Shown piece after piece: positions 4,871 to 64,000 of a DNA stretch of 64,000 nucleotides; the stretch's first letter is position 1, and each line of letters begins with the position of its first letter. A program made the position numbers and the translations under genes. Source of the stretch: Pelagomonas calceolata (taxonomy: Eukaryota); the NCBI GenBank assembly GCA_918797485.1, contig CAKKNE010000006.1:744001-808000 (forward strand), written 5' to 3'. The notes below the pieces were generated by a model. It worked only from the letters and a program-made list of their open reading frames with translations, was not told where the DNA came from and ran no database searches.

Positions 4871-7800
4871 ATGCGCCTCCTACCGCTTCTCGTAGCTGCG
4901 GGCGCCGCACCGACCTGTCAAAAATGCGGTGTGAAGAGAGAGGACGGCCAGATGCCGGACTGGAACTGCTGCTGGGCTGGAGGCTCGTGGCACGGCAAAT
5001 GCTCTGAGAGCGGGCCGTACACGTGGCACGACGGCTGGCATGAGTGCAAGGAGCCGAACGACGCCGAACGTAGGAGAGCGCACGGCGACGCGCAGGGGCA
5101 TTTTGGAAGAGGCATGAGCCGCGTCTGTCCCCACGCGTCTGCCAGAGTTGTGGACGGTCCTCTCGGTACAGGTATTTCGGTCGTGTATGTCGTCTACGGC
5201 GCTTCTGGCGGTGAGGCGTCTTCCATTGAATTCTTCGGGAAGCACGGTCTCGACGAGATGACGAAAATCGACGGCGGGACTTCTGTTCAAGTGTTGAGGC
5301 CTCAGCACCTGGGCGCGGAGGTCGTGGCGTCTCAGTCATCAAAATTGACGAAGGCCATCTCTGATTTAGAGAACGTTTGTAGTCATTGGGCGCGCTGCAC
5401 TACCCATGAATATGCCGGGTCGAAACTACGATGGCTCGCAGTGGCATCAGCGTGGCGGCGGACGCCCGCGTCGTCCTACGTACTTTGTACGAGTCGTGTG
5501 ATGGGGCCCGCCTTGCCGACGTACTACACGGGCGCCGCCTGGCCTCGAGCATTAACCTCATTACTGGACAACACGACGTCGCTGGTCGCCACTGCGTTAC
5601 GCGTGGACGGCTGCGACGTTAGGGTAGACCTCGCGAAAGGCGTCGTGGCCCTGTCGGCGTCTCTCGTAAGGCAACTGCTGGTGGCGGGCCCCGACCGCCT
5701 CGAGTCCGACGTCGTGAGGATGGTGCGGGATGGGCGCGAAGCGCTGAAGACGTTTGAACCAGGTTATGAAAGGGTAGACTGGGACGCGTTTTGGAGTTTA
5801 TGTGCGTTTAAAGGTACACCTCGCCTGCCAAAAGATGCTTCATCAGCCTTCGCGCAGCTGTTCGCTCCGCAAATGACACCTCTCAGCTATGCGCGGGACT
5901 GGCATTCAAATGGGAGAGATATCGTCGCGAAGCGGCGCTGGAAGGGCGACACTCTTGTGGTTTATGCCTATCACGAGACGCCCGACGCCAAGGCAAACAT
6001 GGCCTACTTTCTTCGAAATGGCCTCCGGAACTTGATGGCTCATGTGATCATCGTGGTCAACGGGCCCTCTTCACTGAAATTCCCTCAGGACTCGGACCGG
6101 TTCAAGAACACGCTGCGGATCATACGGAGGGACAACTCGTGTTTTGACTTTGGTTCGTGGGGCGTCGCCCTGGCGGACGCGAGGAAGCGGCTCCGACTGG
6201 TCAACGTCATCCTCATGAACGCGTCGGTGCGGGGACCGTTCCTGCCGGCCTACGCGCATACAACAAACTGGGTCGACGGCTTCCTGGCGCTGCTGCGGGG
6301 CGACGTCGCTTTAGCTGGACTGGCCGTGAACTGCCCAGACGGAAAAGGCCGGAAATGGCCGCACGTCATGTCCATGGCCATGGTGCTCGACGAGCGGGCT
6401 TTGCGGATCGCGGACGACCACGGTATATTTGCGTGTGCGTCTTCTTATGACGAGGCCGTCGAGCGCGAGGGGCGGCTCTCGAAGCTCGTGCTGGATGCTA
6501 AGTTAAACTTGGGCACGATGCAACACAACTATCACTCGACAGACTGGCGTAAAGTGCTGCCGACCGTGGAACACGCGGCGCTCGTGCCCAATAGTGCCAA
6601 CTTTCCCAGCTGTCCTGGCATTGATTTAGATATATTCTACAAGGAAGGATGGCATTCGGGCTCCACCCCACATCCGGTAGAATTCTTGTTCTATAAGACC
6701 AATAGAGGCGTCGGCGCCGACGCGGTGGAGGCGAGATCATCGCCGCGCTCGTCGACAAAACGCGTTTTGCTGGCCTCGCACAACTTCGACGGCGACGGCG
6801 CGCCGCGCTACCTGCTCCACGCCGCGGAAGTGCTGAAGCGGGACCACGAGTTACTGGCATGGTCCTTCGAGCGCGACGGCCCGCTGCGGCGCGAGTTCGA
6901 GCTTCTGGGCGCGGAGATCATCCCGTCGCCGACGGACGAGGAACGGGCGCGACAGCGGCTGAGCTGGAAGGACGTGACCCTACAGAGCGTGCTGAACTTT
7001 GTAAACACCGACGTCGACGTCATCGTCTTCAACACCGTCCTCTGGGCCAACGTCATCGCGAGCGGCGACGGCCGCGTGCGCGGGTCGGGACCGAGGATCA
7101 TGTGGATTTTACACGAGATGGAGATCACGGAGCACAGCGTGCCGAGGCATGAGAAGTTACGACTGCGTGGAAATCAACGCGTCGATGGCGTGGGGCGCCT
7201 GCAATTTTATTTCCACACAGGTTCACGATGGGGACCGGGTTCTGGTACGGGCGCTGGTTCCCCGTGTTGCTGCCGGCCCAAAGGTGCGCGACGCTCGCTC
7301 GTGCGGACGCAATCATATTCGTCGCCGACGCGCAACGAGCTTTGTGGTCGTCGTGCGATCGGGGCACGTTCCACACGGTGCGGGGTCGACCGCACGCTCT
7401 CGCCGAGGATGATGTGGTCACGTTGCTCGACTTCGAGGCTGTCGCGGCCGCCGCGGAGACGGCGCTGCGCGAGAAGCTCGCCCTGGAGGTGAAGGCTCGG
7501 CCGCAAGTGCCGCCGGCCGCGCTCTTCAAGCCCGACGTGAAGCGCGCATCATCGACACCGAAGAAGAAAAAGAAGCGGCTGGGTCACCGCCACGAGCACC
7601 GGAGACTGACGTCGACTGCCGTGCGCGACGAGCTCGCGATACCGCAGGACGCCTTCGTCCTCACCACCATCGGCACGATCTGCCGCCGCAAGCGCCAGAA
7701 GTGGGCGCTCTACGCGCTGCGCTACCTCGTGCAGAAGAAAATAGATGCATATTATGTGCTCGTCGGCGCGCCGTCCGACAAAGGCGGCAAAGGGGACCCT

Positions 7801-12292: not shown

Positions 12293-14089
12293 ATGATGGC
12301 CACGCCCCGGGCCCACGACGAGGAGCCCGTCGAGCTCGTCGCCAAGGGCACGCTCCATAAAAAAAGAGGCGGTTTAGGGAGGCACACGTACGGCGTAAGG
12401 TCCTCGCCCTACGTCCGGCGGTACTTCGAGCTTACCAGCGACGGCGTTCTCAGTTATTGGGATGAACATGAAAGACGGAAAGGGGGCGACCCGCGGAACA
12501 GCCTCAATCTATTAGCGTCGCGGGCCGTGTTATCTGTTGTAGCAACAACATCGGGCGGCGGCGCGCCGGCCGAAAGGGTTTTGGCCATTGCGCACGAGCA
12601 AGGCGGCGCGAGATGGAAGCTCGCGGCGGATTCTGATGAAGCGAGAGATGCCTGGCGAAGAGCTCTGGAGCCCTACTGTCGGGCCTCGGCGCCGCGGCCC
12701 TCTGCTGACGTGAGAGCAGTGGTACCCGACCTCCCGCCCGACCTCACCGCGACGAGAAGGAAAGCACTTACGAGATCGTCCGTGGCCATGGGCGACCGGG
12801 GTTCGACGATCGTCGCGCTGGCGGCGTTCTCGTTTGTAGTTTCTGTCATTTCGGCAATCGTGTGTAGTGGAGGCGCCTTCTCCGTGTCCGTGCTGGCTCT
12901 CGTGCACGGCTACGCTCTCGTCGTGCTCACAAGGCGAGGCGCTTTGGATCCCCGACCCTGCACATCCGTCGTAAAAGTCGCAGAAGACGATAGCTTACCT
13001 CCCCTGCCAGAGGGCATCGACACGGCGTCGGAGAAGAAGGGCCGGCCCGTCGCTGGCACGACTATAGCTCGCTCTGATTTTGATATCACTGGAGGCGGGC
13101 CGCCCGCGACGTGGAGTAGAGCTCCTGGTTCTACTTTTAGGGTCAGACAGGTCGGCTACAAGCACCACGGCAAGAAGGCCGTTTCTGCCGAAGCTTTTTA
13201 CGAGTGCGTTTCTGTCGACTTATTTGATACTTCTTCGAGGGTCCCGTGCCTCGCCGACAAGGTAGAGTTGCCGGCACCCGAAAGAGTCTCGCCGGACTCG
13301 GACATTCCCTCGCTCTTCATCGTAGTGGCACACATCCCCTCCGAGACGGGGCCCATGTCGGTCGGGCCCGACGCGGACGGTTTCTTTGCTGTGTCCTTTC
13401 TTGAGTCGCCATCGACGCGACGCCTGTCCTTTCGTGACCTCGCATCGACGGCGTCTGCATCGACGCGACACCTGCTCGATCGCGGCGACGGCGTGGAGGC
13501 TCAACGATCGCTCGCGTGGTGACGCCATCGACGCGAGAGCCCGATCGCGCCGACCGACGCTCACCGGCGGGGCGCCCGCGCAGGCCACGGCTACCAGATG
13601 TGCATCGCCTTTCAGCTCACGGAGCGGACGGTCCAAGACCTCGCTTCAATGAAGCAAGGTGGTTCATGTGAGCGGGAAGCGTCCCTCAAGCTCCTCAAGC
13701 GGTGGTGTTCCGTAGCTCCGGAGGAACCGTTCGCGGAACGCAAAGAATTTGGGCGGTTTAAGGTACTGGCGCAAGTCCGGAATATTGATGATGTCTCCAT
13801 CCCGTCCTTCGCGAAGCGCTACAACGGCAAGCCCGCTCTTATCAGAAAGACGGGCATGCTCTACCGATGTGGCCCGTCCGGAAGTTATTTGAACATGGAC
13901 ATCAACGTCCATGCTTTTGGTTATATGGCGCGGAGTGGTTTGCAGTCCATCTTCCGGGACTTCCAGGACTTTATTCTTTCGGTGGGGTTCACTGTTGAAT
14001 CGAGGTCAGACGAGGAGCTCCCAGAATGTATTTTGGGCTGCTTCGATTTGAACCACGTCGACTACAATGCTGCGGTGCCCTGGGAGTAA
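12293..14089 (+). CDS. PH domain + transmembrane hairpin + EDR2 C-terminal-like (DUF1336) protein; exons 12293-13379 and 13584-14089
   Basis: PH motifs (KGTLHKK, RRYFELT, EARDAWRRAL), FRVRQVGY...K motif and C-terminal ESRSDEELPECILGCF. A 204-nt GT-AG intron at 13380-13583 restores the frame (ADG|HGYQMC). Confidence 0.8.
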
Positions 14090-18108: not shown

Positions 18109-19690
18109 ATGAAGCAATCGAACAGCTGGCTCTCCGGCTTGTGGAGAGCCGCCGACATGGCGTCGCGAAGCGCATCCCCGGCGAGCGCCGACGACGAGCG
18201 CCACGCCGTCGTGTCCAACCCGCCGAGCCCGACGCAACTCACGGGGCTCGTAGCGGCCGAGGCCAAGTCCCACCGAAGGCAACATAGCGACCAATCCCGC
18301 TTCGCGAGGCCGGCGAAGAAGAACGTGCGGCGGGCTCGAGTGGTGGAGCCCGAGACGGACGAGGAGTACACCGCGTCTGAAGATTGGAGAAGAGACTGCC
18401 GCGCCGTGGCCGTGCTCGGCCAGGGGTCCTTCGGGCGGGTCCACCTCGTGACCTTCCAGGGCGGCAAGTTCGCCCTGAAATCCGTCGCTGTCGCTAGTCT
18501 CACAACACCGAAGAAGCGCGAACACGCGCGGTCGGAACGAGTAGCTCTGGCTTTGCTGCGAGGCCACCCCAACATCCTGCGGATGCACGCGGCCTGGACG
18601 GCGCCGGGAGCTCTACACTTAGCTACGGAATGCGCCTGGGGCGGGGAGTTGTTCAGACACTTGCAGAGAAGGAAGCGCTTTGCTGCCGCGGAGACGAGGT
18701 TCATCATCGCGGAGCTAGCTGCCGCATTAGTACACGCGCATAAACACAAGGTCGCTTACCGCGACGTGAAGCCGGAGAACGTGCTCTTTGGCGGCACGGG
18801 CCACGTGTTATTGGCGGACTTTGGCCTTAGTAAAATCGTCTCCATAGACGACAAGGACTTTCCCACCAAAGGATGCATTTCTTTATGCGGCACGCCGGAG
18901 TACATGGCGCCCGAAGTTTTAGATAGGGCGCCATACGGCGGGAGCGTCGACTGGTGCGTGCTCCGCGTCCTTATGTATACATTTGTATGTACTGCAAGTA
19001 TTTATACGTATTTTTATGTATTCAACGTGGCGCGGCGACGGCGTTCGGCTCATGGCTACGCCCACCTTACGCCATCGACGATGTATGCGTATGTTTACAT
19101 ACATATAAATTTTTTGTATTCACAGGTGGGCGCTCGGGATGCTATCTGCCGAGCTCCTCACGGGCCTGCCGCCCTGGTACACGGAGGACCGCGTCGAGCT
19201 GTTCCGTAGGATCCGGCGGGCGCCGCTCGAACCGAGGCACTTGGTCTGTCGGGATCCTCGCGCGCGCAGAGACCCTCTGCAGCGCGACACGGCGTTACTG
19301 GTTGAAAGGTTGTTGCGACGGGACGCGACGCAGCGCCCCTCCGACGCGGACATCAAAAATGATCGCTACTTCGCCTTCTGTGGTGGCTTGGAGGACCTGC
19401 CGAGCATGGAGCCGCCGTTCAATCCCTCTTCATCAGATGCGGACCCGGGTCCTGCGTTCCACGACCGCGTGTCGAACGAGCGGGCGCCTTCCCGTCGAAG
19501 GTGCGCGCCGCTGTCGGAGGTCGCTGCGGTCGCGCGGAACTTTGAAGCTTCCGATTCTGTCAGCTTGACCGCGGACGCCGTCGCGCTTGATGTGGCTGCT
19601 GCTGCGGCGCCGCCACCTCCTCCTCCCGACGGGGCACCCGGCTCACCCGGCGTGCAGTCGCCGCAGTTCCCGGGATGGGTTTATCCGTAG
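18109..19690 (+). CDS. AGC-family Ser/Thr protein kinase; exons 18109-18953 and 19126-19690
   Basis: GQGSFG, FALK, YRDVKPEN, DFG and CGTPEYMAPE motifs; splicing restores VDWWALG. Confidence 0.92.
18954..19125 (+). mobile_element. Introner (AT-rich family), 172-nt GT-AG intron
   Basis: Alignable end to end with the intron at 29134-29307 in an unrelated gene. Confidence 0.85.
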
Positions 19691-24472: not shown

Positions 24473-26056
24473 GGTGTCTGACGTCGTCGAGGCCATTTGA
24501 GGTGCGCCGCACGGCGGTACGCACCTCACGACCTCGTGTACCCCGCAGGCCGCGTCCATGAGTACTCTCAATCGCTCGTACGCGCGAAGACCGTCGCCGA
24601 CCGCCTGTCCACGGCGACGCTCTATGCAAGGCCCACGTCTCAAGCACCGCGTGCGCACCCCTCCTGATCTCGCACAACCCTGCGACCGCGTCCTCAATGC
24701 GATCATCGCGCTCTGGTGAAAAGGCGTACCGTCCTTCCTTTCCCATCCTCCTTACAGCTCGTTCCCTCACAGAAGGGACGAGACTTGATCGGTTTCTACA
24801 AACACCATGCACTGAAAACGAAGAGCTTGGCGTGCCCTTAACCTGAGCACTGCGAGCATGTGTGCGGGCCCGCGGAGATGTCCTTTCTCGAGGAGGCGCC
24901 TCGGAGGAGAACGTTTCGGAGCAGACCACCGCACTCAGCCTCGACCCCTTTGCGACGGCCACATGATACACACGGCGGGCGCGCGAACTATGTTGGCAGC
25001 CCGGAATCTAGTTCCAGTGGGTGTGAATCACGGACGGAACACATGTAAAGGGATCGTCGGCGTCGTCGTGCGGTGCCGCCGCCGTTTCGTCTTGCGTGCT
25101 GCGCCCGACCCCGTAGCCGCTCGTCGTCGAGCCGTCACAGTTCTCGTGTCACACTTGCACGTAGATGAGCCGGCGCCCGCAGCTCTGGTTGGCGTCAAGT
25201 TTTTTTTTTCTCTTTGCGGCCGCACTTTCGTGCGGCCTGTGGCGCTACTCTGGCGTCATGTTTTTTTTATTGTCATCTATCTCGTGGCCGCGGCACGCTA
25301 CGCTAGAGCGCATGTCTGCAACACAGCTGTGCTGGCGCAGGAGAGCCGCGGCGGCGCGCTGAGAGCTGGCGCAGCGCAGCGGCGAGAGCAGTCCTCGCTG
25401 GATAGGCTCCCGGAGAACCCCAAAGCTTCGGAGCCGCGCTGTAACGCGTGCTATTTGCCGCATTGAGAGCTGCACCTCTCAGCTCCTCTCAAAGCTCGAC
25501 CGTCGAGGCGTCCTCAATGGTTCTTCGCGAGCAGCCCTTCGACGCAGCGCACCGCTCTGCATAAGAATCGTCCGCGAAAGGAACTTGCTTCGCTGCAGCG
25601 CCAAAACCCGGTTTTTAGCGCCGCCCGCCGCTGAAAAAGTGTCCTTGCTCCGCTCTCGATCACCACAATAGTTAAGGAGAAAAGGAAGCCATAATGCCGG
25701 CCTTGAAGCTGTGCCAAGCCAGCGCCTGACTCATAACTTGCGCGCGGGCGCGCGTCGTGGGGCACTGAATAGAAACGTCTAGCGCGCGCCAACGCGGGGA
25801 GCGAGCTGCGCCCCGTCGGGGACGCGTCGGAAGAGTCGCGAATCGAATGCCAGACACCAATTCTCAACTTCTGAGCAATTGGAAGCTGCGCAGACAGCGA
25901 AACCGCCTCAGACCCACACGTTCTCGCTTCCCGCCATCGCTCCCACAAGGAGTCTCGCCGCGCCGCCGCGCCGTCGACGCGACCGCCGCACTCCCACGCC
26001 CCGCCGCAACTCGCGCACCGCTTCCCGCCGCGCCGTCACCCTCGCACACAACACAG

Positions 26057-28095: not shown

Positions 28096-30884
28096 TTACT
28101 CCGCCCCCCACGGCGTCGCGCCGAGCACCGCGCCCCGGAATTCGCCCCAGGAGACGCGCTGGTCGCCGTCCTCGTCCAGCGCGTCGATCGCGCGGAACAC
28201 GTCGTCCGTGCCCACGTCGACGCCGAGCACCTCGGCGAACTCCTCGTCGTCGCGCAGCGCCGCGGCGGCCTCGCTGACCGATATGGCGCCGTCTCCACTC
28301 GAATCGACCCGGTCAAAAATGCCCCTCAAATACGCCTCGAGCGCCTCGACGTTCGCGTCCGGCGGCGGCGGCGGCAGCTCGTCGTCGGGCTCGTCGTCGT
28401 CCCACGGCCCGAGCAGAGCCTTCCGGAACTCGTCCCAGGAGATGGAGCAGTCCCCGTCCGTGTCCATCTCCGCGAGACTTTCGATGAGTTGCTCCTTGGT
28501 CCAGCCCTCCCGGATCTTCGTGCGCCCGTCGAAGCCCATCGCCTCCGCGAAGTCGTCGTCGTTCCGACACGCCTTCACCGCCTCCGCGACGGAGATCTCG
28601 CCATCATCACCAGCGACTCTGTCAAACAAATCACGGACGTAGGCCTCCATCTTCTGGCGCTCGAGGGCCTCCATGGCCGCATCTAAAGCCGCATCTCTAA
28701 ATTCCTCCCATTCGATCTCGTCGGACCAGTCCCAATCTAAGGCGTCGAGCATCCGGTCGGCGAATTCTTCTCTGCTCAATCCTGAATTTGCAAAGCCGGA
28801 GCCCTCGGCAAACTCCGGGTCCTCCTTCAGAGCCTTGACGAGCTCGCCGTACGACAAGGAACCACTCCCATCGACATCGACCCTATCAAAGACGACCTTG
28901 AGGTAGGCCGCGTACTCGTCAAGATACTCGTTCACCTCCTCGCGCTCGTTCTCCTCGTCTTCGAGCGGGCCCAGGAAGGCTTCCCGGAACTCCTGCCAGG
29001 ACACCTTGTTGTCTCCATCTTGGTCCAGTGATTGTAACATGTCAGTGAGCTGTTCTCTACTACCGTCGGCCTGCCTTACTTTCGTCCGGGACCCGAAGCC
29101 CATGAGTTCCGCGAAGTCGTCGTCGTTGCGCACCTGTGATAAAAAAAAATTATATATATGTAGACATACGTATACATCGTCGATGGCGTAAGGTGGGCGT
29201 AGACATGAGCCGCACGCCGTCGCCGCGCCACGTTGAATATATATATATATATATGTACATATAAATACATATAAATATATGTATACATAAGGACGCGGAG
29301 CACGCACGGCCTTGATCGCCTCCGCGACACTGATCTCCCCATCACCAGACGTGTCCGCGGCCTCGAAGATCGTCCGCAGGTACATTTCCAGCCCTGGTAA
29401 CTCACAGAGGTCGACGTCGAACGGTGACCTGTGTGGAAATCAACCAGTGAATCAGGTTATCCTGAGAAATATTCGCGTCTCGCTATCTCGGCGCCGCGGC
29501 CCTGGTTTCGGCCCAAACTCGGCCACGATCTCCGAGAGATACACTCGACCGAGTGGAGCGAGCAGCACCTCACGCAAACCGCGAGAGACCCCGAATTGAA
29601 GCACAAGTTGAACTTTGATTTCCTCACAGACGGCGACTTTTCCGGTTCGACGAACGGCGGAAGAGGGTCCTCAAACTCCAGCGCACTCCCGAAATGTTTT
29701 CTAAAAGTCTCCCGGCGGTGCTTCAGGTCCGACTCGTCGCCGCCGTGGAGGTTTACTGCCTTGATCTTGTCGTCTGAACTCACGGCAATGCCGTCCAGGA
29801 CTCTTAATTGTTGCAATCTAAATACGACGCGTCTCCGATAGAAAGGTAAATCGCTACAAGGGTTGCCCTGCAATAATAATGAAGAAAACAACGGCAGTCG
29901 TTCCAGGAACTCCACTTCCCGAACTTTTTCTATACAGTTGTCTCGAGCGTCGAGTTCATCGAGCGCCTGCAGCGGCTCCAAGCCATCCAGCGTCGTGATC
30001 TGGTTTTGTGCAACGCCGAGCCTTCTCAAATTCACGAGGTTCTCGAGGCCATCTCCCATCGTGGTCAGTCGGTTGCCCCCGACGTCGAGCTCAACTAGTG
30101 CTGACAAAGTCTCCAGCCCGGAGACGTATGAAAGGTCGTTGTTCCTCATCGACAATATCTTGAGTCTTGATAGGTTCTGTAGACCAGTGATCTCGTACAT
30201 GCGATTGCCATCAAGCACAAACTTCTCGAGTCTTCTATGTGTAGATTGTTCACCAAGGACCTCTATGTCATTGTCCGATAAATCCACCTCAATCAAGTTC
30301 GAGCCGGCGTGCTTGCGACCGAGGGTCCAGGCCTTTTCGCCAGGCACATTCCGCGGAATCTCGAGATCGAACTGCGACAGTTTGTTGCCAGAGGCGTTGA
30401 GTCGCGTCAAGTACGGCAGATGCTCCAACGGTGATAATGACGTCAAATTATTACAAGAGACGTCGAGCGCCTGAAGGTGCTCGTAGGACTGTAGCACGTC
30501 TATATCTACGAGCTGGAGACCGCTCACCGAACAGCCCAGGTAAGCATGCTTTAAGTCAGCAGTCCGGCCCAACGTATGCAGTCCCTGGGCAATATCATCT
30601 CTCTCAAGACTCCGGGGCCCCCGGTCGACCCGGGCCCGCCTCGTGACTTTCCCGCGATAAATTCTACCGATGCTGGTAGCCGCCTGAGTCTGTTCTCGAC
30701 GTTCGTCGACCTCGCGACACGCGATGCGGCCGCGCTGCCGCGTCTGTAATAACGAAGCGGCCTGCTCCCTTTCTTTTTTGAGGGTCTGCGTGCGCTCGAC
30801 GGCCTGGCGGTCGCGGTGGCCTCTACTAATGGCCTGGAGGCGCGTCGCCGCATCCTCCTCCTCTCTTTGCTCGTCGCTGAGCAT
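28096..30884 (-). CDS. IQ motif + LRR (LRRC23/LRGUK-like) + multiple EF-hand protein; exons 30884-29638, 29428-29308 and 29133-28096
   Basis: Three IQ-like motifs, SDS22-type LRRs with an LRRcap (NPC...YRRRVVFRLQQLRVLDG) and about eight EF-hands. Removing two introns fuses the two long ORFs (PEK|SPFDVD; AIKA|VRND). Confidence 0.85.
29134..29307 (-). mobile_element. Introner (AT-rich family), 174-nt GT-AG intron
   Basis: Copy of 18954-19125 with (TA)n expansion; interrupts an EF-hand helix. Confidence 0.85.
29429..29637 (-). mobile_element. Introner (TIR family), 209-nt GT-AG intron
   Basis: Element 29429-29629 with TIRs CTGTGTGGAAATCAA and TTGATTTCCTCACAG; 8-bp TSD ACGGTGAC (29421-29428) and ACGGCGAC (29630-29637). 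Confidence 0.92.
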
Positions 30885-41871: not shown

Positions 41872-41877
41872 GTTTTA

Positions 41878-44952: not shown

Positions 44953-45528
44953 GGCGTCGCTGGGGGTGCCATCGCTGAGCGCGCCCCGGCTAACCAAATA
45001 TATGTCGTAGCTTTCGGCGTTTTTTCGTGGGTCCGTTCCCGGGAAAGCACCTGCCCGGAACGCGTCGCCGGGTGGGCCCCTCCTCCTCGGGTAGTAGGCT
45101 CTCACGGAGCTCCTCACGGGCGGGCCGCGCGCGGTCAGCTCGTGTAGTCGGACAGGTGGTCCCGCCGCGTCGTAGGCGTCCCGCGGCCGCATCCAAGCCC
45201 CCGAAAAGCCGAAGCGCCGCCTCGGCGTTCAAAATCCTAGTGGGCGGCCACTAATTTAGCGCTCCCTTGCACTCGCTACGGTATTCAGTAAAACGCGTAC
45301 CAAAACGCGCTACCTCGCACGTAGGCACCGGCGCCCACTGCCAAAGCAACCTTCGAGGCCCAGACGACCGCGCGGGCACCGCCGCGCCGCGGGCGGACGC
45401 GGTGGGGCAGCCCTTCATCGTAGCGTCAGCCCCGGAACTCCCCGCGCGCCGCCGCACCCTTGCACGCGCAGCTTCATTACGCCGTCGCCCGCGCAGGCAC
45501 CACCCGAAAAACACCCTAGAGAAGCACC

Positions 45529-47025: not shown

Positions 47026-48478
47026 CTAGTCGTCCTCCGCCTGCGAACTCCGCTTCTTCTTCCCGCCCTCCATGATCGCCTTCTTCTTCTCGGCGGCTTC
47101 GATGGCGGACGTGATTGAAGGGCGCTTGCTATCAATAACTTGGATGTCGTACTCCTTCGGTCTTTTACAACAGACCACCTTCTGAAACGTCTCTACATAA
47201 GTGAGTGGTGGATCGCGCCCGTGCGTCCGCCGGTGCTCGTTCTTGAAGCGCTGTTTCTGCACCGACTTCATGAGGTCGCGCCACCGCGTTTCACCTAATG
47301 TTTTTTGCTGCATCCTATCTTGTAGTCTAAAAGCAGGAAAAAAAATCATCGGGTATCTAGTTTCAATAACCTTGAACTCCTGGAAGTCGATGAGGCCGTC
47401 GTCATTACTGTCGAAGTTCATCAATGCCGTGCCCATGTTGCCCGGGAACAAGGGTGCGCCATTATTCACTGTACTGAGTAGTGCCATGAACTCATTTTCA
47501 TCAATACTATTGGATTTATCCTTGTCAAAAGTATCAAAGCAGAACCGTAATATGTCGTCCTTCGTGTACATGCAGTAGGTTAAGAGTACCGCAATGAACT
47601 CGTCGAACTCGATGGTGCCACTCCCGTCGAGGTCCATGAGCGCGAACAATTCGTCGGTCAACGGCGTGCGTTCTTCGTCGAGCATGTCGAAGAACTCGAC
47701 GGCGTCCATGGAGCCTGCGTGGCGCGAGCGTGAGCGGCGCGGCGACCGCGTCAACCCCACGCCATCGCCGCGACGGCCCCGACGCGCGTCGAAGGCGTCA
47801 AACGCGGAAACACGAACCGGACTGGTCGACGTCGATCTCGTCGAACTCGCGCTTCAGGTGCCTCAAATCTTTTTGCGTGAGATTGAGAGCGTTGACCGCT
47901 TCCCGCGCCGCGACGGTCTCGAGCTTGATCGTCTCCGGGACGCCTGTGGGTGAATGACTCCGTCGCGAGGCGCGTAGACTCTCTGATGATCATGAAGACG
48001 CAACTTGAACTTCGGAAACGTGCGGCAAAGACGCGGAGTCCGCACCGAACATCTGCCAGAGCTTCTTGAACCTCTTGCTGCGTTTCTCGGCCCTCCTCTT
48101 TTTTTCAGCTTCTTTAAGGCGTTTCTGGCGGTCCTCATACGACTCCTCCGCGGCCATGGCGTACTTGTCCGAGGGGCCGCCCACTGCTGCTAACGAAGCT
48201 TTCACGGCGTCCGCGGCGCCGTTCAATCCTGAAGTCCTCTTCTGAGTAGGTGCCTTGAACTGCTTGCCGCGTTGTGGGGAGGACGTCTCCTCCTTCGTCT
48301 CCTCCTTGGACTTGGACGACTTCTTCTTCTTCTTGCTGTCGCGGCGCTTCCCGCTCTTCGGCGACTTGTCCTCGGCGGCCTCGTCGCCGGGCCAGGCCTT
48401 GCGGTTCCGGCGCTTCGCGGAGCCCTGCTTCACGAGGGCGCCGTCGGCGGGAGCGACCTTGTTCTTGTCCTTGGCCAT
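47026..48478 (-). CDS. EF-hand calcium-binding (calcineurin B-like) protein with basic N-terminus; exons 48478-48046, 47943-47818 and 47714-47026
   Basis: Four EF-hands (DVDQSGSMD after splicing, DLDGSGTIE, DKDKSNSID, DSNDDGLID). GT-AG introns at 47944-48045 and 47715-47817 restore one frame. Confidence 0.85.
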
Positions 48479-53134: not shown

Positions 53135-56100
53135 TTAGTCGTCGACGTCGTCCAGCCCGAAGACCGGCAGGTGGTCCGCCAGCGCGTCCTTCAGCGCCCG
53201 CTCCCTCACACCTCTGTCATCAAGCGAGGCCGCCAATTGCTTCAGCGTCTCGGTCCCTTCGTAGAAGGACCAGGCCGGCGCCGCGCCGCTCCGGTCCTCG
53301 ACCCAGATTCGGAGCGGCGACGACGGCCGCGGGCGAGGCACGGCCTCCATCTGTAAAGTATCCCGTCTAGGAAACACCCAATAGGCGTTTTTGTTCCTAT
53401 CATAACCGAGCGGCTCGAGGCGCGGTAGAGCTCGCGCGCGCACGTCCCGCACCTTCGCCCGGCGACGCGCTATCTCTTCAAACTTCGCCTCGGCGTCTCG
53501 GAGAGCCTCGCACGCGTCGGCCACTTCTCGACAGACCCAGCGCTTCGGAGGAATGACAGGCACCTTCGGCACGGGCTCCTCGGAGAAGCAGAAGTCGACT
53601 TGCGGATCGAGCACACGATCACCAATCTGAGCCATGTGAGGCTTGCCTGTGTGGAAATCAATGTCGCGGCGCGTCTCCTCCCACGGCCCAATCATGCCCT
53701 CCACGCCATCGACGCGACGCCTGTCGCACGCGACACACTGGTTGATTCCCACACAGAAGCTTGCCCTCGAAATACCGTCGGACGTCCGGCCGCGACCGCA
53801 ACTGCACGCCGTCCGGGGGGTAGTAGTACACATCCACTTTGTCCGAGGACTTCCTAGGTTCACATTTCCGGAACCAGCCCGGCGCCGGGTCGTCCTGGCC
53901 CTTCGGCGGCGGTGGAGGTGTATCGTCTTCTTCCTCGGGAACTAAGCCTTCGAGCAGCACTTCGTCAGAACGCGCTTGTTCAAGAGCAGTCTTCAACGCT
54001 TGGACGTCGACGCCGTGGTCGCCGGGCTTGCAGGCGTCTCTGAGAGTAACAATGCACTTGCGCCGCGCGTCTCGCAATGTCTCAGTTCGTTGTTGCAACC
54101 CCCACTCGCTCTCCTTCCGCTCCAAGGCAGGAATGGACGCCACGAACTCGATATCGCCGCCGCCACAGGCGTCCACGGCCCGTGCGTGGGCTATTTCAGC
54201 TCTGAACCGATGGCGAGTAGGCGCGGCGACCTGGGCCGGAGGCGACGCTCTAGGTGAAGAATTCTGGGAACTAGGCTGCAGATCCGTCGTCGCTTGAGCC
54301 ACTTCCTCGTCGGGCGACGGCATGGAGCCGTCCACACAAAAGGTAGCGAAATCTGGTATAGGATCATCTTCTCCCATAGCTCTACAAGCCGTATATTGTC
54401 GCGCATGTAGCGGTGTCGTCAGCGACGTATACCCCCGCGCGACGTCGTTGAAGATATCGCCTCGCCGCGCGCCCAGTCGCAGCATCTCCTTGATGGTAGT
54501 AGCGCTTCGATAGCGCTCATATAAAGCGTGGACCCTCGAACCAGGTAATTTTGGATTTCTCTGTTCTACTGAGCATGGAGCATCTATATTGATGAGGTGG
54601 TCCAGCAACGCCGACAAAGGAGGCGGCGCGGCCCCGGGCCGCGGCCGCGGCCGCTTCCCTTCACCGGAAGCTTTCTTCGATTTTTTCCTAGGCTTCTTTT
54701 CGTCGATTTCCGGAGGGACGTCGCAGCCCATCTCGAGCGCGAGCTTTTCTCGTACTTGTGATGCGGTTTCTTTTTCTTTTTCGGCTAGTGTTCGTTTTCT
54801 CTCTCGTTCGTCGGCCTCGGCCTTGGCGTCGCGTAAGGCTCGTAGTTCCGACGCTTCATCTACGAGCGTAGCGCAGCCGTAGGACGAGGCGTAGGCGTCG
54901 CATAAGGCCTTGAGCACGGCTACTCTTTCTCTTGTGCCGAGGCCACCATATGGATAACCCTCGGAGAGCCACTTGCTTGCTCGATGTAACGCTTGCGGCG
55001 CCTCGTCGCGCTGCGCGAGGCGCGCGCCGACGGCGCCGGCGAGGCAAGCCCAGGTCTTCGGTCCTACGGCTTGCTGCGGCGGTCTCGGCAATCTAAGAGG
55101 TGCGGGCGGCGGCGGGGCGGGCGGCGCGTCCTGCGTTGATTAAAGTGAGACGCCATCGCCACGAATGAAGGACGCTGGCACGCACGAGGTTGTCCTCGAA
55201 CGGGTCGAAAACAGGCGGCGGCGGCACGTCCTCGACGAGCGCGCGCTTCTTCGCCGCGGCGCGGTCGTGGGCATCTAACACGAGCGCCTCCTGGACGGCG
55301 TCCCGCGGGAACGGAGCGGCCTTCGAGCCACCGAGCTTCTCCAAAACCTTCTCGCGCTCCTCGCCATATTCCTCCAAAATAGTTTTTTTGGCCTTTCTCC
55401 CTCGCCTGCGTGGCACGGACACTGTCAGACCACGTCAAGTTCAAGGTCACTGGAGACGCCGCGTCGCGGACCGCCGGTCCTTCTTCTTCTCGTCGTCGTC
55501 TTCATTTACTTTCTTCGCGCGCGGGACCGGTGGGAGCTTCATGGGCTGTTCGTCGTCCGTGTCGTCCGATTTGGGTACCAATGACTCAAGTAACTCGGAC
55601 CTGCGTGTGACATGTGTCGAGTCGCGTCGACGGCGTGAAGACGCCGCGAGCGCACAGTTCCAAATCTTCTTCATCACCCTCGAGTTCTCCGGAAGAAAAG
55701 TAGACGTGCCACAGAGCTGCTGGTTTTCCCTCAGAGTCGTTGTAGTCGCTTCTAGAGGCGTCGAGCCACCCTCGGACCGCCCCTTCACTATGAGATATTG
55801 GTTTGCCGGTGGCATCCAAGACGCTTCGTCGCACACTTCTGCCGAGGTACTCGCTCCCTTCGACGCGCCAGCCTTCCGCTCGGGCCCTTCTAGTCTCCTC
55901 TCTGGCTTTGTGGTTGACTTGAGTTGTATCAGCTAAGTGAGAAGCCCAGGTCCGCGCCGCCGACTCGGCGTCGTCTCTTCGTGCTGCGTCTCTGTCCGCG
56001 GCGGGGCCGGTCCAGCACTTCGGCCGCGCGTCGCGAGCGGCACTAGCCAGTGCTAATGCACCTGTCTTACGTTCGTCAGCAGACAAATTTGAGAGGTGTT

Positions 56101-58626
56101 CCAACAAGTTCCGAGCACTTCGCAAAGTAGTAAACCTAGCGGCACACCGCAGCGCGTCTTGCGCGCAGGCCGACGACGCCTGGTCGCACGCGGACACCCA
56201 TCGCCTCGTGTCCGCGTCGGCCTCGTTGCCTCGTTTTAGCTCCGCTACTACTTCTTCCGTCGTCCTCACAACGTCCCAGACCCGTTCTGAGGGTTGTTCG
56301 TCGGGCGGGTCCTCGCTCAACCGCTTCGTAGCGGCACGCGAGAACCGTCGCGCGACGCGCGCCCAGGGGTGCTGCCTCGCCCTTAACTTCGTCGTTTTTG
56401 CTGCTGGATACCGGAAGCCGCCGTCGTCGTCGGAATCGGCCCCAAAATAGCCCGGGTCCTCCTTCACGGCGGGTGGAGACCAATAATCATCAGCTGAGGC
56501 GTCGTCTAGGAGCACCTCGAGGAGGCAGGAGTGGGCCCGTCGCAGCGGTTCCAAGGCTCCCCTCGGTCCTGGTAATGTTTTGAGAGGTGAGGCTAATGCG
56601 GCCGCGAAGGCATGCAAAGGGGGCGGCTGATTTGGCGACTCCTCTAGATCTAAACCGGTCGAGGGTCGGCCTCTTTTGAGACCCTTGGCCGTTCTCCGAG
56701 CCGCCACGGCCTTCAACAAAGCATGAATAGCGAGCACATCCCCGACCTTGTCTGGAGGCAGGCCTCTTAACAATTCCACACAAGGGTCTTGGGTCTGAGG
56801 CCTCTCAGCCAATTCAACAGGAGGCTCTTCAGATAATAACGAATCGTCAATGGGGTACTTCTGCTTGCCGCGTCGTTGAACAGGAGCATCCACAGAAACG
56901 CGCTTTTTGCGCGGCGCCCGCGACCGCTGGAGCGCGTCGCGCTCCTTCGCTTTGCGCTTCGCCTTGCGCTCCTCCTCCTGCTGGGCGCGCTTCTCCGCAG
57001 CTAGTCTCGCTTCCTGGTAGAGCTCCTCGAGCTTGAGCGTGCACTCGCCGAGCCGCTTCGAGACCCTCCCCTCGCGCTCGATATCATTGATACAGCACTG
57101 CCGCCGGTCCCGCGCCGCCTGGTACTGCTCTATGCGATACGCGAGCTGGAGGTCCGTCTCGTGGATGGGCACGGAGCCCGGGGGCTGGTTCTCGGCCTTG
57201 TGGACCGCTGCTAACAATTCGGGAGACGCGTCGGGCAGCGGCGTCTCCTTGAGGTTCTCCGTCGCCTCGGCGAGCCGACCGCGCGCGCCGGCCTCCTTTT
57301 CTCTCGCATCCTCCAGCTTCTCGCGTAACCGTTCGGCTTTCGCGTTGGCCGCGGCTACTGATTTACTACCACGATCATCGGCTTCCGCGTGCTGCTTCTT
57401 CAACACGTCGGGGTTGATGGCCTCCTGTTCATCATCTAGCACGCGACCCAAAGCCGCTCGGAGGTGCTGCGTGCACGCCGCGAAGCGCTTCGCGTGCGCC
57501 GCTCGCCGTCGCCCTTTCTTCGTCCTCCCGAACGTCGACGTCGCCTTCGTCCGGCGCTGCGGCACGGCGAGGAAGAAGGCTCTCGCTACTTCTGCTCGGG
57601 AGCGGTAGCGCTTGCCCGCGGGATCGAAGTAGTACACATCGTAGGTTCCCGCCGTGTCGCCTTCTTTCCTCGTTTCTACCGTGGCCTGCGGGTGATGCGT
57701 GTCGCGGCGACGGCGTGCGGGCGCTCCCTAGCTCTCTGGTGCGTCTATCGCGGCGACGGCGTGAGGATGCCATCACGCGGTGTGCCATGTCGCGTCGATG
57801 CCACGCGGCGACGCCATCGACGCGCCGCGACGCCGTCGATGCCACGCGGCGACGCCGTCGACGCGACGCGACGCCATCGACGCGACGCGCCGACGCTATC
57901 GACGCGACGCGACACGCCATCGACGCGACACGCCGTCGACGCAATTCGAGGACGCTGTTGCGTTACCGTCCAATTCTTCACCAAATCCGCCGACCCGCCG
58001 CAGGCGACGACGTACCTTTCCAGAGCCTCGACACAAGCTTTGTTTCTCTCATCAACACCCATCGACGCGAGATTTTGCCTTGCAATTGGCGCCGCGGAAG
58101 GTTGCCCCACGGCCCCCCACCGGTTCCCACCCAAGGGCGCGCCGGACGACCGCTGGCCCGTCAGAGCACATGCTAAGGGTGCCAATTCGTTGCCGTTCTC
58201 CTGGACCGACGCGCCGTCGATTTTGAGGCGAATCTTGACGTGCCTCGTAGCACTCGCTCGTGGCGAGGAAGGCGGCGTCGCCCCCGTCAGGAAGTCGTCG
58301 TGCTCGTCTTCTTCGTCGTCCTCCTCCTCCTCCGACGAGCTCGATTCCTCCATCGGTTGTTGTGGCGGCATTTGCATCATCGGAGGCACGGCATACAGCA
58401 TGGGCGCGTTCGGCACGAACTGCGGCGCGTAGGGCATGCCCTGTGGCGGGTACTGCTGCAGGGGCACGACCGGTAGAGCTCCCGGTGGGGGATACTGGAC
58501 GTAGGGCGCGCCCGACGCCCACGGCGGCGCGGCCTGGGGTGGTGGCTGGGTCCCTGGGGCCTGGAAGTCGGCGCCGGACGCCCATGGCGGCCTCTCGTTG
58601 GGCTGAGGCGGTCCGTTCTCGCTCAT
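53135..58626 (-). CDS. BAZ2-like chromatin protein (MBD, DDT-like, Tudor-like, WHIM1, second MBD, WSD); six exons
   Basis: Introns at 57686-57966, 55601-55655, 55406-55471, 55131-55185 and 53647-53764 join six ORF pieces in frame. Motifs: DVYYFDPAGKRYRSRAEV, ERVAVLKALCD, DVYYYPPDGVQLRSRPDV and PLGYDRNKNAYW...LDDRGVRERAL. Confidence 0.82.
53647..53764 (-). mobile_element. Introner (TIR family), 118-nt GC-AG intron
   Basis: Element 53647-53756 with TIRs CTGTGTGGAAATCAA and TTGATTCCCACACAG; 8-bp TSD AGGCTTGC (53639-53646) and AAGCTTGC (53757-53764). Confidence 0.92.
57760..57942. repeat. Intronic cluster of GCCRTCGACGCG(AC)-type repeats
   Basis: Roughly seven exact or near copies packed inside the 281-nt intron. 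Confidence 0.85.
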
Positions 58627-58955: not shown

Positions 58956-58977
58956 CTAGCGTCTTGTAAGGCACTAG
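58956..58977 (-). promoter_or_regulatory. CTAG-flanked intergenic motif copy (CTAGTGCCTTACAAGACGCTAG)
   Basis: Lies between divergent genes. Confidence 0.5.
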
Positions 58978-59163
58978 TCTGGGCGAAGTGTGAGCGCGCT
59001 CCGTAAAGCACAGCTGCTGTTGCAACCTGCAAGCTGTACAGCGCTCAGCAATTCGCACAAATACGTATCACCAGGACTAAGTGAAAAACGCTGTCGCTGC
59101 AGCCCTCGTAGAGCTTGAGCGCTGCACTGCACACGACTGCACTGCAAAAACGCCATCGCAGCG

Positions 59164-59562: not shown

Positions 59563-59603
59563 ATTCACTACAATACGCCATCGACGCGACGCCTCGAAAG
59601 AAA

Positions 59604-61417
59604 CTATGATTTACCCCTACGTTTCTTCTTCGCCACCTCCACGACTTCCTCGACCGCCGGCGCGACGGCCTCGACGCCCTCGAGCCGCTGCGTCAACCGG
59701 TCCCACCTCTTTCTAAAATAGCGCGGCAGCGACGGCCGCGGCGTGTGGTCCGATAAGAAGGAAGACATCGATCGTCTATATTCATCGACGAGAGCCGCCG
59801 CCGTGGACGTGTTCATCGACAGGGCATGAGATAATAAAGCCACCTCCAGACTTCCGGTCGTGTTATACACGTCCGACTTGAGACCGGACACGATCTCTCT
59901 CAGGTCATCTCTGTCGAACGTTTTGGCCCCATCGGCCGACGGGACGACATAAAGATACACGCAGAACCAGTGCGTCACGGCTCCCGCCATGACAAACAGG
60001 TGCCACACCACATGCCATCCTGGGTGCTTGTCGGCCAGTATGAATGGTATCACACCAATAACATAAAAAGCGCCTCCCAAACCTACTAGAAAGATGGCCT
60101 CCGTCCCCAAAATCTCCTTTATCAGGCCAATACAAGGGAGACACGCGAAGCCCATCACTCCAAAGGTAGCTAACTCCAACCAATTCGTTTCGGTTTTGCT
60201 CATCCCGACCCCGGCCGCGGAGAATAAACAGCCGCCGCCCGCCAGTAACCACTCCAGGGCCACAATAATCGCGATCGGCACGTGGCCGCGACAGCCCACA
60301 CTGATCAAGGCCGTGTAGGATCCAGCTATCAGTAGGTAGATGCCTGCGTGGGACGGGCGCCGTCGCGATACTCTCGCGAGACGCGGAGACTCTCTGACGG
60401 CCACGTCGACGGCGTCGAGGTGAAGCGGTCTCACGAGGACGCCATCGACGCGTCGACGGCGCCGCGGCGGCGTGGTCTCGTGAAGACGCCATCGACGCGA
60501 CTCATTTCAACGCTGACTCCGTACCCATGTGGTCCACGCGCATCCAAAAATGAAACATCTTCGGGTTGCTGAAGTGGCCGTGGTAGAGCGTCGAGCTCCC
60601 GAAGCATACTAACAGCGTGGCCTCGTAGGCGACGCAGCACCTGCGCGCGTATCGTGACGCCATCGCCGCGATCCAGGACGCTGACGCAGCACCAAAACGT
60701 GAACCGGTCCGCCTGATAAGCATCTGTCAATAAAGGGATGCACGCGACCAGTGCCACGACAAATGATAAACCATGGGTCAACGCCGACAGCATCTCCTCG
60801 GTACTAAAATTGCCCACGGACTCGACAGTAACATTTTTTTGTTTCGAGGCCGTGCTGATTTTCGACACGCCCGGGAAGTAGAGCGAGTTGTTCGAGACGT
60901 CGATCCGTTCCAGGGACGGCGCTTGTCGCACGGCCTCGGCGAGGGCCGCGCAGGCGTCATCTCCAAAAGTGTAATTCTCGGTGAGTATGAGAGTCCTGAG
61001 CGACGACTCCCGCAAACCCTGGGCGAGCTCCTCTATGCTGACGTCGTCGAGGCCGCACTGCGATAAGTCAAGCGTTTCCAGTGATTGATTGCGTTTGAGT
61101 ATTTCGGCTAGGGCTCTAGCATCTGCGGCGGGCGACGCGCCCCGCTCGCCGTCCGCTCTGAGTTTCAGCTCTGTTATTGATTTTGATTCAGCTAGAACGT
61201 CTATCAACGGTAGTAAACCGCCCCGCCCGAAACCGAGCGAGGGCGCTAATAACCACCACCCGGTGGCCAGCGTCGTCGACGTCGCGGGATCGGGCGTCAC
61301 GTTGTAGGCCCGGCAGGAGTTGAGGTAGGCCGCGACGTCGGCGTCGGCAGTCTTCGACGTGCGCTTCGTGGAGCGCGGGGCGCCGTTCTGCGGCGTCATG
61401 CAGTGAGTGCACCTCAT
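59604..61417 (-). CDS. RNI-like LRR domain fused to hemolysin III/PAQR membrane domain; exons 61417-60693, 60640-60525 and 60343-59604
   Basis: LETLDLSQCGL LRRs; EEMLSALTHG, SSTLYH, DHMGIYLLIAGSYT (after splicing) and HVVWHLFV. Confidence 0.85.
60641..60692 (-). mobile_element. 52-nt intron with perfect 10-bp boundary duplication (probable introner)
   Basis: GACGCAGCAC at both 60631-60640 (exon) and 60683-60692 (intron 5' end). Confidence 0.7.
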
Positions 61418-62133
61418 ACAGTGGTGTTTTGAGCGGCGTACGCGTTTCGCGCGTCGGTTTCAGTGGTGATGCAGCAAGTGCTACTCTGAGATCTCCGAAG
61501 CAGGCGCTCGGTTTCGAAATTCCTTAAGCACTTGTTATGAGCGATGCGTTGGGGTCCTGTGCCGGGCGCAGCGTCAGTGTTAACGCGTCGTGCACTGAGT
61601 GCGCTGCGATTTACAAAGTGCTGCAGGCAGGATGACAAGCTTGTGCAAATGCCGCTGAAGGCGTCCGAGGGCCGGCGAACCGCAAGAGGGAGCCATCTGC
61701 GGACATTTCCAGGAGTTTCGTCGGATAAGGTTCGGGCAGAGGGTCTGCGGCCGCGGCCACTGGCATTCAGTTTTAGGGCCTCCCTGCGCGCCATAGAGAC
61801 GCGCAGAGACCTTCAAACTTTGCAGCTGACCCGCGGCCTGCCAGCGCTGTCCACTCCGAACTCCGGAGCGCAGGGCATTAGCTTGCGCGCTCAAAAGAGG
61901 GCTCTGCGAGTATTTTGAAATAAGGCCCTTTTAGGCCCCGCGCGCACGCCAATCGACGCGCCCATCACACCGGCGCAACTGCCCAGCACAGCGCTACACG
62001 GACGGCCGGCACCGACCGCCCCCGCCGTCGTGCAATTGCGTGAGCGGTAGCCGCGAACCGAACCGCGCTCTCCCACACCAACATTCGACGACTGCACGAA
62101 GCGGTCGCCGCACAACACTCAAACGACGCAGCC

Positions 62134-64000
62134 ATGGCCTCGGACGCGCCCTGGCGCACGGAAGGATCCGTATTAATCGGCTTGGACTTAGTCCGTTCAG
62201 TGATGGGCGTCGAAGGAGGCATCAAGGAACAGGCCCACGCGAAAGTCGTCGGCTGGTTGTCCGCGGCCGAATCGGACTTCGAGGACACGCGGGGCAACCC
62301 GGCGCCGCTGTACCGCATCAAGTACTTAGATGGCGCGCTCGCGGGCGACGAGGAGGATTTGGAGGAGTACGAGGTGCGCAATTCGGTGCCAGATGCGGAT
62401 CGAAGAGCTCTTGCCGAGCGCGAGGGCGTGCCGTACGTCGAGCCGACCAAGAAACGGAAGGTCGCGCCTCCGAAAAAACCGGCCGCCAAGAAGAAGAAGC
62501 GCGGCGGCGCCATCGCGGCCACGAAGGCCGCGCCGCGGCCCAAGAAGAAGAAGAAGCGCGAGTCGTCGGTGGTCGTGCAGCGAGAGGAAGCTCCAAGACC
62601 TCTCAGAAGGGCCGCGGCGCAAGCCGCGTTAAACAGAGGTTTTGCAGATGGCATGATGGCGTCCGCGCACCGAGGGAGGGACGAGGTCGTGCGCATCGGG
62701 CTGGCGCGGCGCGCGTTGCAGGAGCTCACGGTCGAGACCGGGGCCCCAAAAGTGAACCGGCGCGACGTGACGAAGAAGTGCGCTCGCGGCGTCCTGCGGT
62801 GCTGCGGTGCCTTCACTTCCTTAATTCCAGGGGTGGTTTCATTTTTGATTTTGAGGCGATTCGGACCGCGCAGGTGCCGCGAGCTCGCCGGCAAACTTTC
62901 AAGAGGCGACGTGACGCACGAGACGGCCAAGGACCTGAGCGACGACGACGGCTACTTGCATTCGGACGACGAGGGCATCACGGACCTGCCGCTGGCGTCT
63001 TCTCTCGTGGAACACGCGCTCGATGCGCTCGTCGAGCAGGGCGAGGTGAAGAAGTCCGGTGATGATTATGCGCTGGTCGTCGACGACGACGGGGACTGGC
63101 GCGGGGCGGCGTCCTGTCCGAGGCGCCTTCCGCTCGGCGCCGTCGAGGCGCCGTCGCGTCGATGGCGTCTGGCGCCCCCCGTACGCCGTCGCCGCGGCCG
63201 CGCGAGAGTCTCACGCGCAGGTCCGACGACCCGGACAACCAGCAGCACAAGTCTTTACTGTTCTCGAAGCCGCCCCAGAGCTACGAGAACGCGCTAGCTA
63301 GAACACTGAACGAGCGGCCGTCGGGTGCGCGCGCGTCGTGGCGGTCCGTGCGAAGACACGTTATTGTGCTCCCGCAAGGCCCTGATGAAGACGTCGAAGA
63401 ACCACAAGAGGAGGAGGAGGAGCAGGAGGACCCGGAGATGGCCCAGGCGCTGCGCGACGCGTGCTTCGAGGCCGCGCGCATCGCGGCGAACGACTCGTCG
63501 GAACGTCCCACAAAAACGGCGTTCGCGATCTTCAAGGTGCTGACTCGGCGTTTTCAGTGATCTTGAACTTGTCGGGGTCGCCGCGACGGCGTAGTGTCGC
63601 GACGGCGTCGTTCCCGCGCAGGAGACGTCGATGAAGGCCGCGGTGGCCAAGACGATGGACGGCCATTCCCTGAACGACGACCCCGCCCCGGGCTGGTACC
63701 GCGAGCTCGTCGCGCGGCGGTCCGGAGATAAAGTGGACGCTTATTATTATCCTCCTGACGGGACGCAGCTGCGGTCGCGGCCCGACGTGCGCCGCTACTT
63801 CGAGGCCCATCCCGACGAGGCCAAGGTCGGGGATCGTACGTCTCGGCGTCTTCACGCCATCGACGCGACTCGTGGGTGGTGCTCTGGTCCAAATTTGGGC
63901 CGATTCGGACCGCGTCGATGCTCCGCGCAGGTACGCTGGACCCCCAGAGCGACTTCCAGTTTGCGTATAGCAAAGTTCCCAGTAGTGAAATTGCGAGATG
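62134..64000 (+). CDS. Tudor-like + MBD chromatin protein, 3'-partial; introns 62778-62873, 63099-63220 (GC donor), 63537-63621 and 63836-63930
   Basis: The spliced product contains DDPAPGWYRELVARRSGDKVDAYYYPPDGTQLRSRPDVRRYFE...DFQF (MBD); N-terminal VVGWL...YRIKYLDGALAGDEEDLE. Confidence 0.75.

Follow-up and report, generated by a model that had tools for sequence, protein, structure and literature searches.

A motif at a near-fixed distance behind the donor in introns of probable mobile-element origin in a 64-kb stretch of the Pelagomonas calceolata genome

Do introns that arise from mobile elements keep a piece of the element that the spliceosome might come to read? The question is raised by a 64,000-nucleotide stretch of the genome of the alga Pelagomonas calceolata (GenBank assembly GCA_918797485.1, contig CAKKNE010000006.1, positions 744,001 to 808,000; hereafter the window), whose introns share a short motif behind the donor that resembles a transposon end. 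The window is gene-dense and about 63% GC, the value also given for the genome as a whole (63%; 10.1101/2021.10.25.465678). Its EF-hand protein has its nearest named relatives in Aureococcus (62%) and Chrysophaeum (60%), both pelagophytes, and matches marine metagenomes at 95-99%. We find CNGYG beginning at +8 to +11 in all 21 introns of the window; the pattern holds up and is not an outcome of how the introns were chosen. A mobile-element origin of the introns is well supported, and we give a probability of roughly 45% to the reading, drawn from sequence, that the motif would descend from the left end of a terminal inverted repeat (TIR) and would now serve as a second donor signal recognised in trans.

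The intron set was established as follows. The original prediction spoke of 19 introns; since it gave no list, we rebuilt the set, and its identity with the earlier one is judged from the equal counts. The rebuilt set reproduces what had been described: all 19 introns end in CRCAG and are followed by an exonic G, which is part of GY in 17; CNGYGT begins at +8 to +11 in 18, the exception being CTGTGA at donor 29637(-); and the six donors quoted as examples were all found in their places. Poly(A) RNA sequencing (RNA-seq) reads were aligned to 40 of the 64 kb, namely 44001-64000 and 16001-36000, with introns 7156 and 13380 (named, like all others here, by the donor) lying outside, and junctions were read from the best 15 of 76 joints in the first region and the best 15 of 39 in the second. 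At least 14 of the 19 introns are borne out in this way (at least 11 in 44001-64000 and at least 3 in 16001-36000), and the RNA adds two introns outside the set, 25711-26056(+) and 45321-45496(+), for a total of 21 with lengths of 52-346 nt, at least 16 of them with RNA junctions among the joints listed. These 16 junctions in poly(A) RNA are evidence of precise removal from mRNA. Introns 35332, 60524 and 60692 are not among the joints listed, which is no negative because the joints are the best 15 per region; depth is low at 60524 and 60692. Introns 7156 and 13380 are supported by frame and stop logic and by Pfam. One RNA run (X19, a small share) served as evidence neither of junctions nor of their absence, and sequence differences of reads inside introns, which probably come from other family copies, were not treated as alleles. 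A further candidate, 23526-23681 (GTCCGGTGC-CTGTGA), is not among the RNA joints listed and was left out of the permutation statistics.

How far does the motif exceed chance? Among the 16 RNA-shown introns, CNGYGT stands at +8 to +11 in 13 and CNGYG in all 16, compared with 1.7% and 9.7%, respectively, behind any GY in the window and with a motif rate within intron bodies of 2.9% per 4-base window. In 2000 shuffles of these 16 introns the mean was 0.2 and the maximum 4, in agreement with the positional enrichment that had been proposed. Introns 25711 and 45321 carry CNGCGC at +10 and +9, i.e. five of the six motif letters. The fuller consensus is CVGYGTYY, longer than the hexamer first noted and starting 8-11 bases into each intron. 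This consensus differs from the TIR at defined places: over the 22 intron positions with no long TIR, motif positions 7-8 are YY in 20 (p ~1e-9), where the TIR has GG, and motif position 2 is T in one (p=0.04 vs the interior T frequency), where the TIR has T. Donors are mostly GTRCG (+4 is C in 18/22 and +5 is G in 17/22), the upstream exon ends in AG at 1 of 25 intron positions, and, as originally described, a polypyrimidine tract is mostly absent (T makes up no more than 20% of positions -20 to -6 in 15 of 21 introns). Separately, TCAC, a candidate for the branch site, occurs within the last 35 nt at 12 of the 25 positions, where 2.4 would be expected.

The link to mobile elements is most direct in three of the 21 introns, 7156, 29637 and 53764, which are intact elements with a target-site duplication (TSD) of about 8 bp and a TIR of about 15 bp (matching at 13/15 in 7156 and 14/15 in 53764, with 29637 in the same TIR family; element ends CTGTGTGG). 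In these the TSD provides the GT or GC donor and the TIR the CAG acceptor, and splicing removes the element together with one TSD copy, leaving no scar. The motif is the start of the TIR in all three and the approximate reverse complement of the 3' end, as had been noted. At 53764 the exon copy of the TSD codes for G-K-P, as does the empty site of a related locus (L005), so that the base change lies in the intron copy. Within the window, long TIR ends are found in introns only; further members of the TIR family, located at other places in the genome, appear as loose ends in hundreds of poly(A) reads. Reads at 16503, 23915-23935 and 29426-29450 contain unspliced copies of the family, which implies that many lie in untranslated regions or retained introns. 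A search of viral contigs gave no TIR match and three single matches to the core motif described below, none of which was used; in bacterial contigs there was one TIR match, at the extreme end of a contig (L084), and it was likewise not used.

Elements of this kind are already published for Pelagomonas and Aureococcus, and the three intact elements are thus of a known kind. Those of Aureococcus anophagefferens were reportedly described by Huff et al. in 2016. They have an 8-bp TSD, with one splice site borne by the element and the other drawn from the TSD (10.1101/2020.10.14.339549; PMC9860276), and introners in general show diverse TSDs and TIRs (Gozashti et al. 2022, PMC9860276). For P. calceolata, 956 putative introner elements with a GT/GC donor, an AG acceptor and a conserved TIR have been reported (Guerin et al. 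2022, PMC9481584, Supplementary Note 3; preprint 10.1101/2021.10.25.465678), and a repeat covers >90% of the intron in 15% of introns (PMC9481584). The three intact window elements fit this build of GY donor, AG acceptor, TIR and TSD. What differs is that in the window the hexamer is found in every intron, with a long TIR or with none, and that the accessible text of PMC9481584 gives it no role in splicing; the logo in Fig. S3b of that paper may already display the hexamer as TIR.

Are the introns recent gains? Syntenic loci from one metagenome scan (L004, L005, L006, L008 and L013; ~68-87% nucleotide identity) were compared using a spliced aligner that scored GY..AG and protein match only and was thus blind to the motif. 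In L005 all six covered window introns are absent, and the sites are empty, collinear and scarless. Intron A of the EF-hand gene (48045) is present in L004 and absent from L005, L006, L008 and L013, and intron B (47817) has orthologues in L004, L006, L008 and L013 and is absent from L005; more distant relatives likewise align straight through both positions. Loss in L005, instead of gain in the others, would be a formal possibility for the six absent introns. Conversely, four positions hold introns in relatives only (L005E, C in L006 and L013, L008D and L008H), and all four of these introns carry CNGYGY at +10 or +11. Other introns proposed by the aligner, in L008, L006, L013 g49p, the first L007 g49p, L005 g52m and L030, were rejected as artefacts of poor conservation or frameshifts. 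The C intron has a GC donor in L013 (913) and a GT donor in L006 (874), with the exon starting in GC in both; a GC-to-GT upgrade following insertion is the likely explanation.

A further 19, more distant, loci were aligned, and six (L015, L040-L044) contain credible introns. These are conventional, with mostly GTAAGT or GTGAGT donors and T-rich ends, and by eye the +8 to +11 motif is absent from them. They share three intron positions (amino acids 224, 277 and 337), all of which are vacant in the window EF-hand gene (47029-47714), as would be expected if older introns had been lost before the new ones were gained.

The original prediction was that nearly every intron here is a decayed TSD+TIR insertion. 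Element origin and recent gain stand, supported by the empty sites in L005, the patchy presence among relatives, shared interior sequence and a trace of the TSD. Of the TIR, the 18 remaining introns retain the hexamer alone, and an internal palindrome ties them to the three intact elements. Interior sequence, in both orientations, joins 19 of the 21 window introns in one network (z>=5, 30 shuffles), many links of which depend on a core of ~14 nt; the CG-rich core palindrome occurs 27 times in 2.8 kb of intron vs 25 times in the remaining 61 kb, a count that leaves introns 25711 and 29637 out on neither side. In a permutation test on 21 positions with the four best cases removed, the residual match between donor and exon exceeds expectation at +3 to +5 (30 vs 22.1; p=0.003, in one out of the five windows that were tried) and is at chance at +6 to +8 (15 vs 15.6, p=0.64). 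A single 8-bp-TSD route for all introns is not supported: this trace is faint, inverted repeats beyond the hexamer are at chance and whole introns move as families. Beyond six bases, the other 18 window introns are no more complementary to their 3' ends than expected (37 vs 35.7 at positions 7-15), and scored non-intact introns reach 5-8 of 15 matches. The twins 18954 and 29307, in a kinase and an EF-hand gene, are identical over their first 29 nt (z=48), and a second family (L013C, i.e. C in L006/L013, with L008H, 62778 and 63836) includes C and L008H, which start alike in different genes. Two families, 18954/29307 and L006C/L013C/L008H, thus travel whole with their own donor: whole-intron copying also happens, and its route could be microhomology DNA repair, conversion or RNA. 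Taken together, all 21 introns were probably gained within the lineage, from small mobile elements that are related to one another. As to the core outside introns, none of its seven matches in the window shows element termini by eye; the palindrome occurs at 16535-16590, 23920, 30911, 34174, 40319 and 59576, at gene ends, between genes and once in a patatin open reading frame.

What, then, might the motif do? In the mechanism we propose, the hexamer would have started out as the left TIR end; it would have been retained and remodelled, losing T at position 2 and exchanging the GG behind it for pyrimidines; and it would support GTRCG donors that lack an exonic AG and face acceptors that lack a T-tract. 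Of the two roles originally offered for a co-opted motif, an end-pairing stem or a contact with a small nuclear RNA (snRNA) or protein, the second, with a putative reader, is the one we prefer. The motif occupies the region of the extended U6/5' splice-site helix, which lies downstream of the ACAGA pairing and forms in B complexes (PMC11208138; PMC11170887), making the first candidates the segment of U6 that lies 5' of the ACAGA box, or helix-binding proteins. The spread of offsets argues for a flexible contact. Universality and fixed distance suggest selection on the motif, short of proof, and in the five orthologues of intron B no change is seen at C1, G3, G5 or T6, whereas there is variation at position 2, in 5 of the 8 columns of the donor segment and in 23 of the 50 interior columns. 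A bolder form, which we consider unlikely, would have the TIR turned into a second donor signal that the major spliceosome of the Pelagomonas lineage reads in trans and almost always requires: element-born introns would have taken the place of nearly all others outside old refuges, and U6, or a protein associated with it, would have coevolved to read CVGYGTYY at +9 to +11, letting elements with that end splice wherever they land before GY.

Several observations weigh against a splicing role acquired from the TIR. The slower decay of the motif relative to its surroundings, on which the idea of co-option had leaned, does not reach significance in the orthologue sets A+B+C (variation in 1 of 12 columns, with 2.9 expected; p=0.15). 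This test has little power, since intron interiors are well conserved: L006C and L013C are 91% identical, as against 53% for the fourfold sites of their gene, although gapped interior identities are inflated such that unrelated intron pairs score 64-77%. Many introns may therefore be too young for persistence of the motif to mean selection. The 25 intron positions are not independent, since family members share ends by descent; the offset spread of +8 to +11 misfits one rigid helix register; an Rfam search for snRNA gave no hits in the window and eight loci; and neither of the two introns recovered from L007, an Aureococcus-like locus, has the motif at +8 to +11; they carry CNGCGC at +12 and +6. 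In a more distant, pelagophyte-like locus (L039) one intron has CCGCGC at +9. In DNA as GC-rich as that of L007 and L039, such matches may be due to chance.

The conservation of interiors is an observation in its own right. Orthologous interiors (47715-47817 and 47944-48045; L006:874-1015 and L013:913-1054) look more conserved than fourfold sites, which are 28-70% identical across five lineages that encode a near-identical protein. Either the introns are constrained, or they spread between lineages after divergence, or synonymous turnover is unusually fast.

Among the alternatives, the one that survives best, although doubtful in our judgement, takes the motif as nothing more than the conserved left end of several young asymmetric families, held at +9 to +11 by descent or by a DNA-level requirement of transposase or repair, with no role in splicing. 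It accounts for the single similarity network, for the twins 18954/29307 and the C family sharing both ends by descent, for interiors more conserved than fourfold sites, for the non-significant orthologue test and for the hexamer being the TIR start in three intact elements. It accounts less well for introns that are unlinked or distant, 45321 (which has no family link), 25711 and L008D, and which keep the motif at the same offset, or for the free variation of position 2 and the donor segment around a fixed C, G, G and T within one orthologous intron; and neutral decay of a TIR should mostly keep T2 and GG, the reverse of what is seen (T in 1/22, YY in 20/22).

A second alternative, quite improbable to us, is that the motif is an older, lineage-specific splice signal independent of the TIR, and that elements ending in CTGYGT happen to fit it and hence survive as introns, a pre-adaptation filter. 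The consistent departure of the consensus from the TIR (V at position 2, YY at 7-8), the intron in L039 and the 18 of 21 introns with no TIR beyond six bases are in its favour, but the hexamer is nearly the reverse complement of the universal RCRCAG end and sits just past a segment of TSD length, the TSD trace at +3 to +5 persists, and the outgroups lack the motif. Last, pairing of the 5' motif with the intron 3' end as a stem is very improbable and finds no support as the co-opted role: the hexamer is close to the reverse complement of the last six intron bases and folding at 20 C predicts a stem in the three long-TIR elements plus 55185 and 60524 (two of the 18 non-TIR introns), but the stem probability is ~0 in 16 of these 18, complementarity is not locus-specific (hexamer 86 vs 87.3 expected, with positions 7-15 at chance as above), motif position 4 and position -4 do not covary (Fisher p=1; permutation p 0.4-1.0), the motif offers the A of AG a T to pair with in 1/22, and pyrimidines stand where the TIR has GG.

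A TIR-derived donor signal would have partial parallels elsewhere. Introners in the broad sense, i.e. similar introns at unrelated loci, empty collinear sites in relatives and precise removal, are what we see here. In Symbiodinium, introner-like elements with a 4-nt TSD account for 17-28% of recent gains (Roy et al., 10.1101/2020.10.14.339549); as in the window, the donor comes from the TSD, the inverted repeat ends at the acceptor, donor dinucleotides convert after insertion and a TIR relic, CT or CC at +5/+6, persists in older introns, whereas the TSD is shorter and section 4 of that source does not claim the relic as a splice signal. Nonconventional introns of euglenids likewise have a likely origin in miniature inverted-repeat transposable elements, a motif inside the intron at a constant distance from its start, no polypyrimidine tract and a purine at the exon start (Nomura et al. 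2025, PMC12501133; PMC11282704); they differ in being non-GT-AG and in having a motif that pairs with the 3' end, as shown genetically, whereas the window introns are GY-AG and pairing is unsupported. Introns of Fritillaria borealis and Amoebophrya share mostly lineage-specific positions, TSD/TIR traces and a spliceosome thought to have adapted, but their ends are non-canonical, whereas window introns have canonical ends and have changed by gaining a motif inside the intron (PMC11282704). Entamoeba has a lineage-specific splice signal with a coevolved snRNA (10.1101/2022.06.08.495308), and PMC11347168 is a further source on analogous systems. No description of a +10 splice motif in pelagophytes was found in the literature, most subscription journals and preprint supplements being outside the scope of the search.

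The 21 introns are listed in Table 1.

Table 1. Introns of the window with their motif, relationships and evidence
Feature	Position	Strand	Evidence and remarks
Intact introner intron, glycosyltransferase gene	7156..7220	+	TIR 13/15 from +8; TSD copy GTTACGA in intron, one base fewer than 8-bp exon copy GTTCACGA; frame restored; outside RNA coverage
CTGTGT at +10, no long TIR, 4 core palindromes; PH/EDR2_C gene	13380..13583	+	Pfam; outside RNA coverage
CCGCGT at +10; twin of 29307 intron; kinase gene	18954..19125	+	RNA junction; Pfam profile 179 to 181
CAGCGC at +10, near transcript 5' end; outside set of 19	25711..26056	+	RNA junction, 147 and 90 reads
CCGCGT at +10; twin of 18954 intron; EF-hand gene	29134..29307	-	RNA junction
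Intact introner intron, TSD 7/8 (GTCGCCGT vs GTCACCGT)	29429..29637	-	Long TIR from +9, start CTGTGA; RNA junction
CGGTGT at +10; patatin gene	35275..35332	-	Frame restored; RNA contig ends at acceptor (35274)
5'-leader intron, CGGCGC at +9; outside set of 19	45321..45496	+	RNA junction, >500 reads per run
Intron B of EF-hand gene, CCGCGT at +11	47715..47817	-	RNA junction
Intron A of EF-hand gene, CCGCGT at +10	47944..48045	-	RNA junction
Intact introner intron, GC donor, TSD 7/8 (GCAAGCTT vs GCAAGCCT)	53647..53764	-	TIR 14/15 from +9; RNA junction; empty in L005
CAGCGT at +9	55131..55185	-	RNA junction; empty in L005
CGGCGT at +11; kin to 63537 intron	55406..55471	-	RNA junction; empty in L005
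CGGCGT at +10; first 16 nt identical to 62778 intron	55601..55655	-	RNA junction; empty in L005
CAGCGT at +10; 9 core palindromes in tandem array	57686..57966	-	RNA junction
CAGCGT at +10; LRR/HlyIII gene	60344..60524	-	Frame restored; not among RNA joints listed
Perfect 9-nt donor/exon repeat GTGCTGCGT, CAGCGT at +10, no long TIR	60641..60692	-	Not among RNA joints listed; alternative in-frame donor at 60698, motif likewise at +10
CGGCGT at +10; C family member (other loci in relatives)	62778..62873	+	RNA junction
GC donor, CGGCGT at +9	63099..63220	+	RNA junction
CGGCGT at +10	63537..63621	+	RNA junction
CGGCGT at +9; C family	63836..63930	+	RNA junction

Nine of the 21 introns lie in two adjoining genes for methyl-CpG-binding-domain proteins (Pfam MBD), at 53138-58707(-), which also has WSD, and 62044-64000(+); the 53764 element interrupts an MBD-adjacent site of one MBD gene, and the site is open in the other. 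Elsewhere in the window, three paralogous genes at 31148-33841 and 51723-53051, with 72-94% DNA identity in parts, belong to a larger expressed family. Their homologues in L032/L034 are 70-77% identical even though the EF-hand gene there is 44-51% identical, which is odd; the observation on this family also concerns L005. A minus-strand transcribed stretch at 23969-24932 has an internal duplication near 24240-24450, and one RNA contig differs from it at 30 places, which suggests a repeat family or a divergent allele.

The new element in these results is the near-universal, TIR-diverged motif behind the donor, for which, judging from the letters of the DNA, a function is likely; the published passages, as far as they are accessible, do not state that the hexamer is kept by every intron, family member or not, at one near-constant spacing behind the donor. 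Should the motif prove to be a splice signal, a canonical GT-AG spliceosome would have gained a new cis element from a transposon end, which would explain why elements are tolerated in exons. Knowledge of the signal would also improve gene prediction in pelagophyte metagenomes, and the coevolution of a spliceosome with invading introns could be tested in a single alga that is in culture, is abundant in the ocean and has a public genome.

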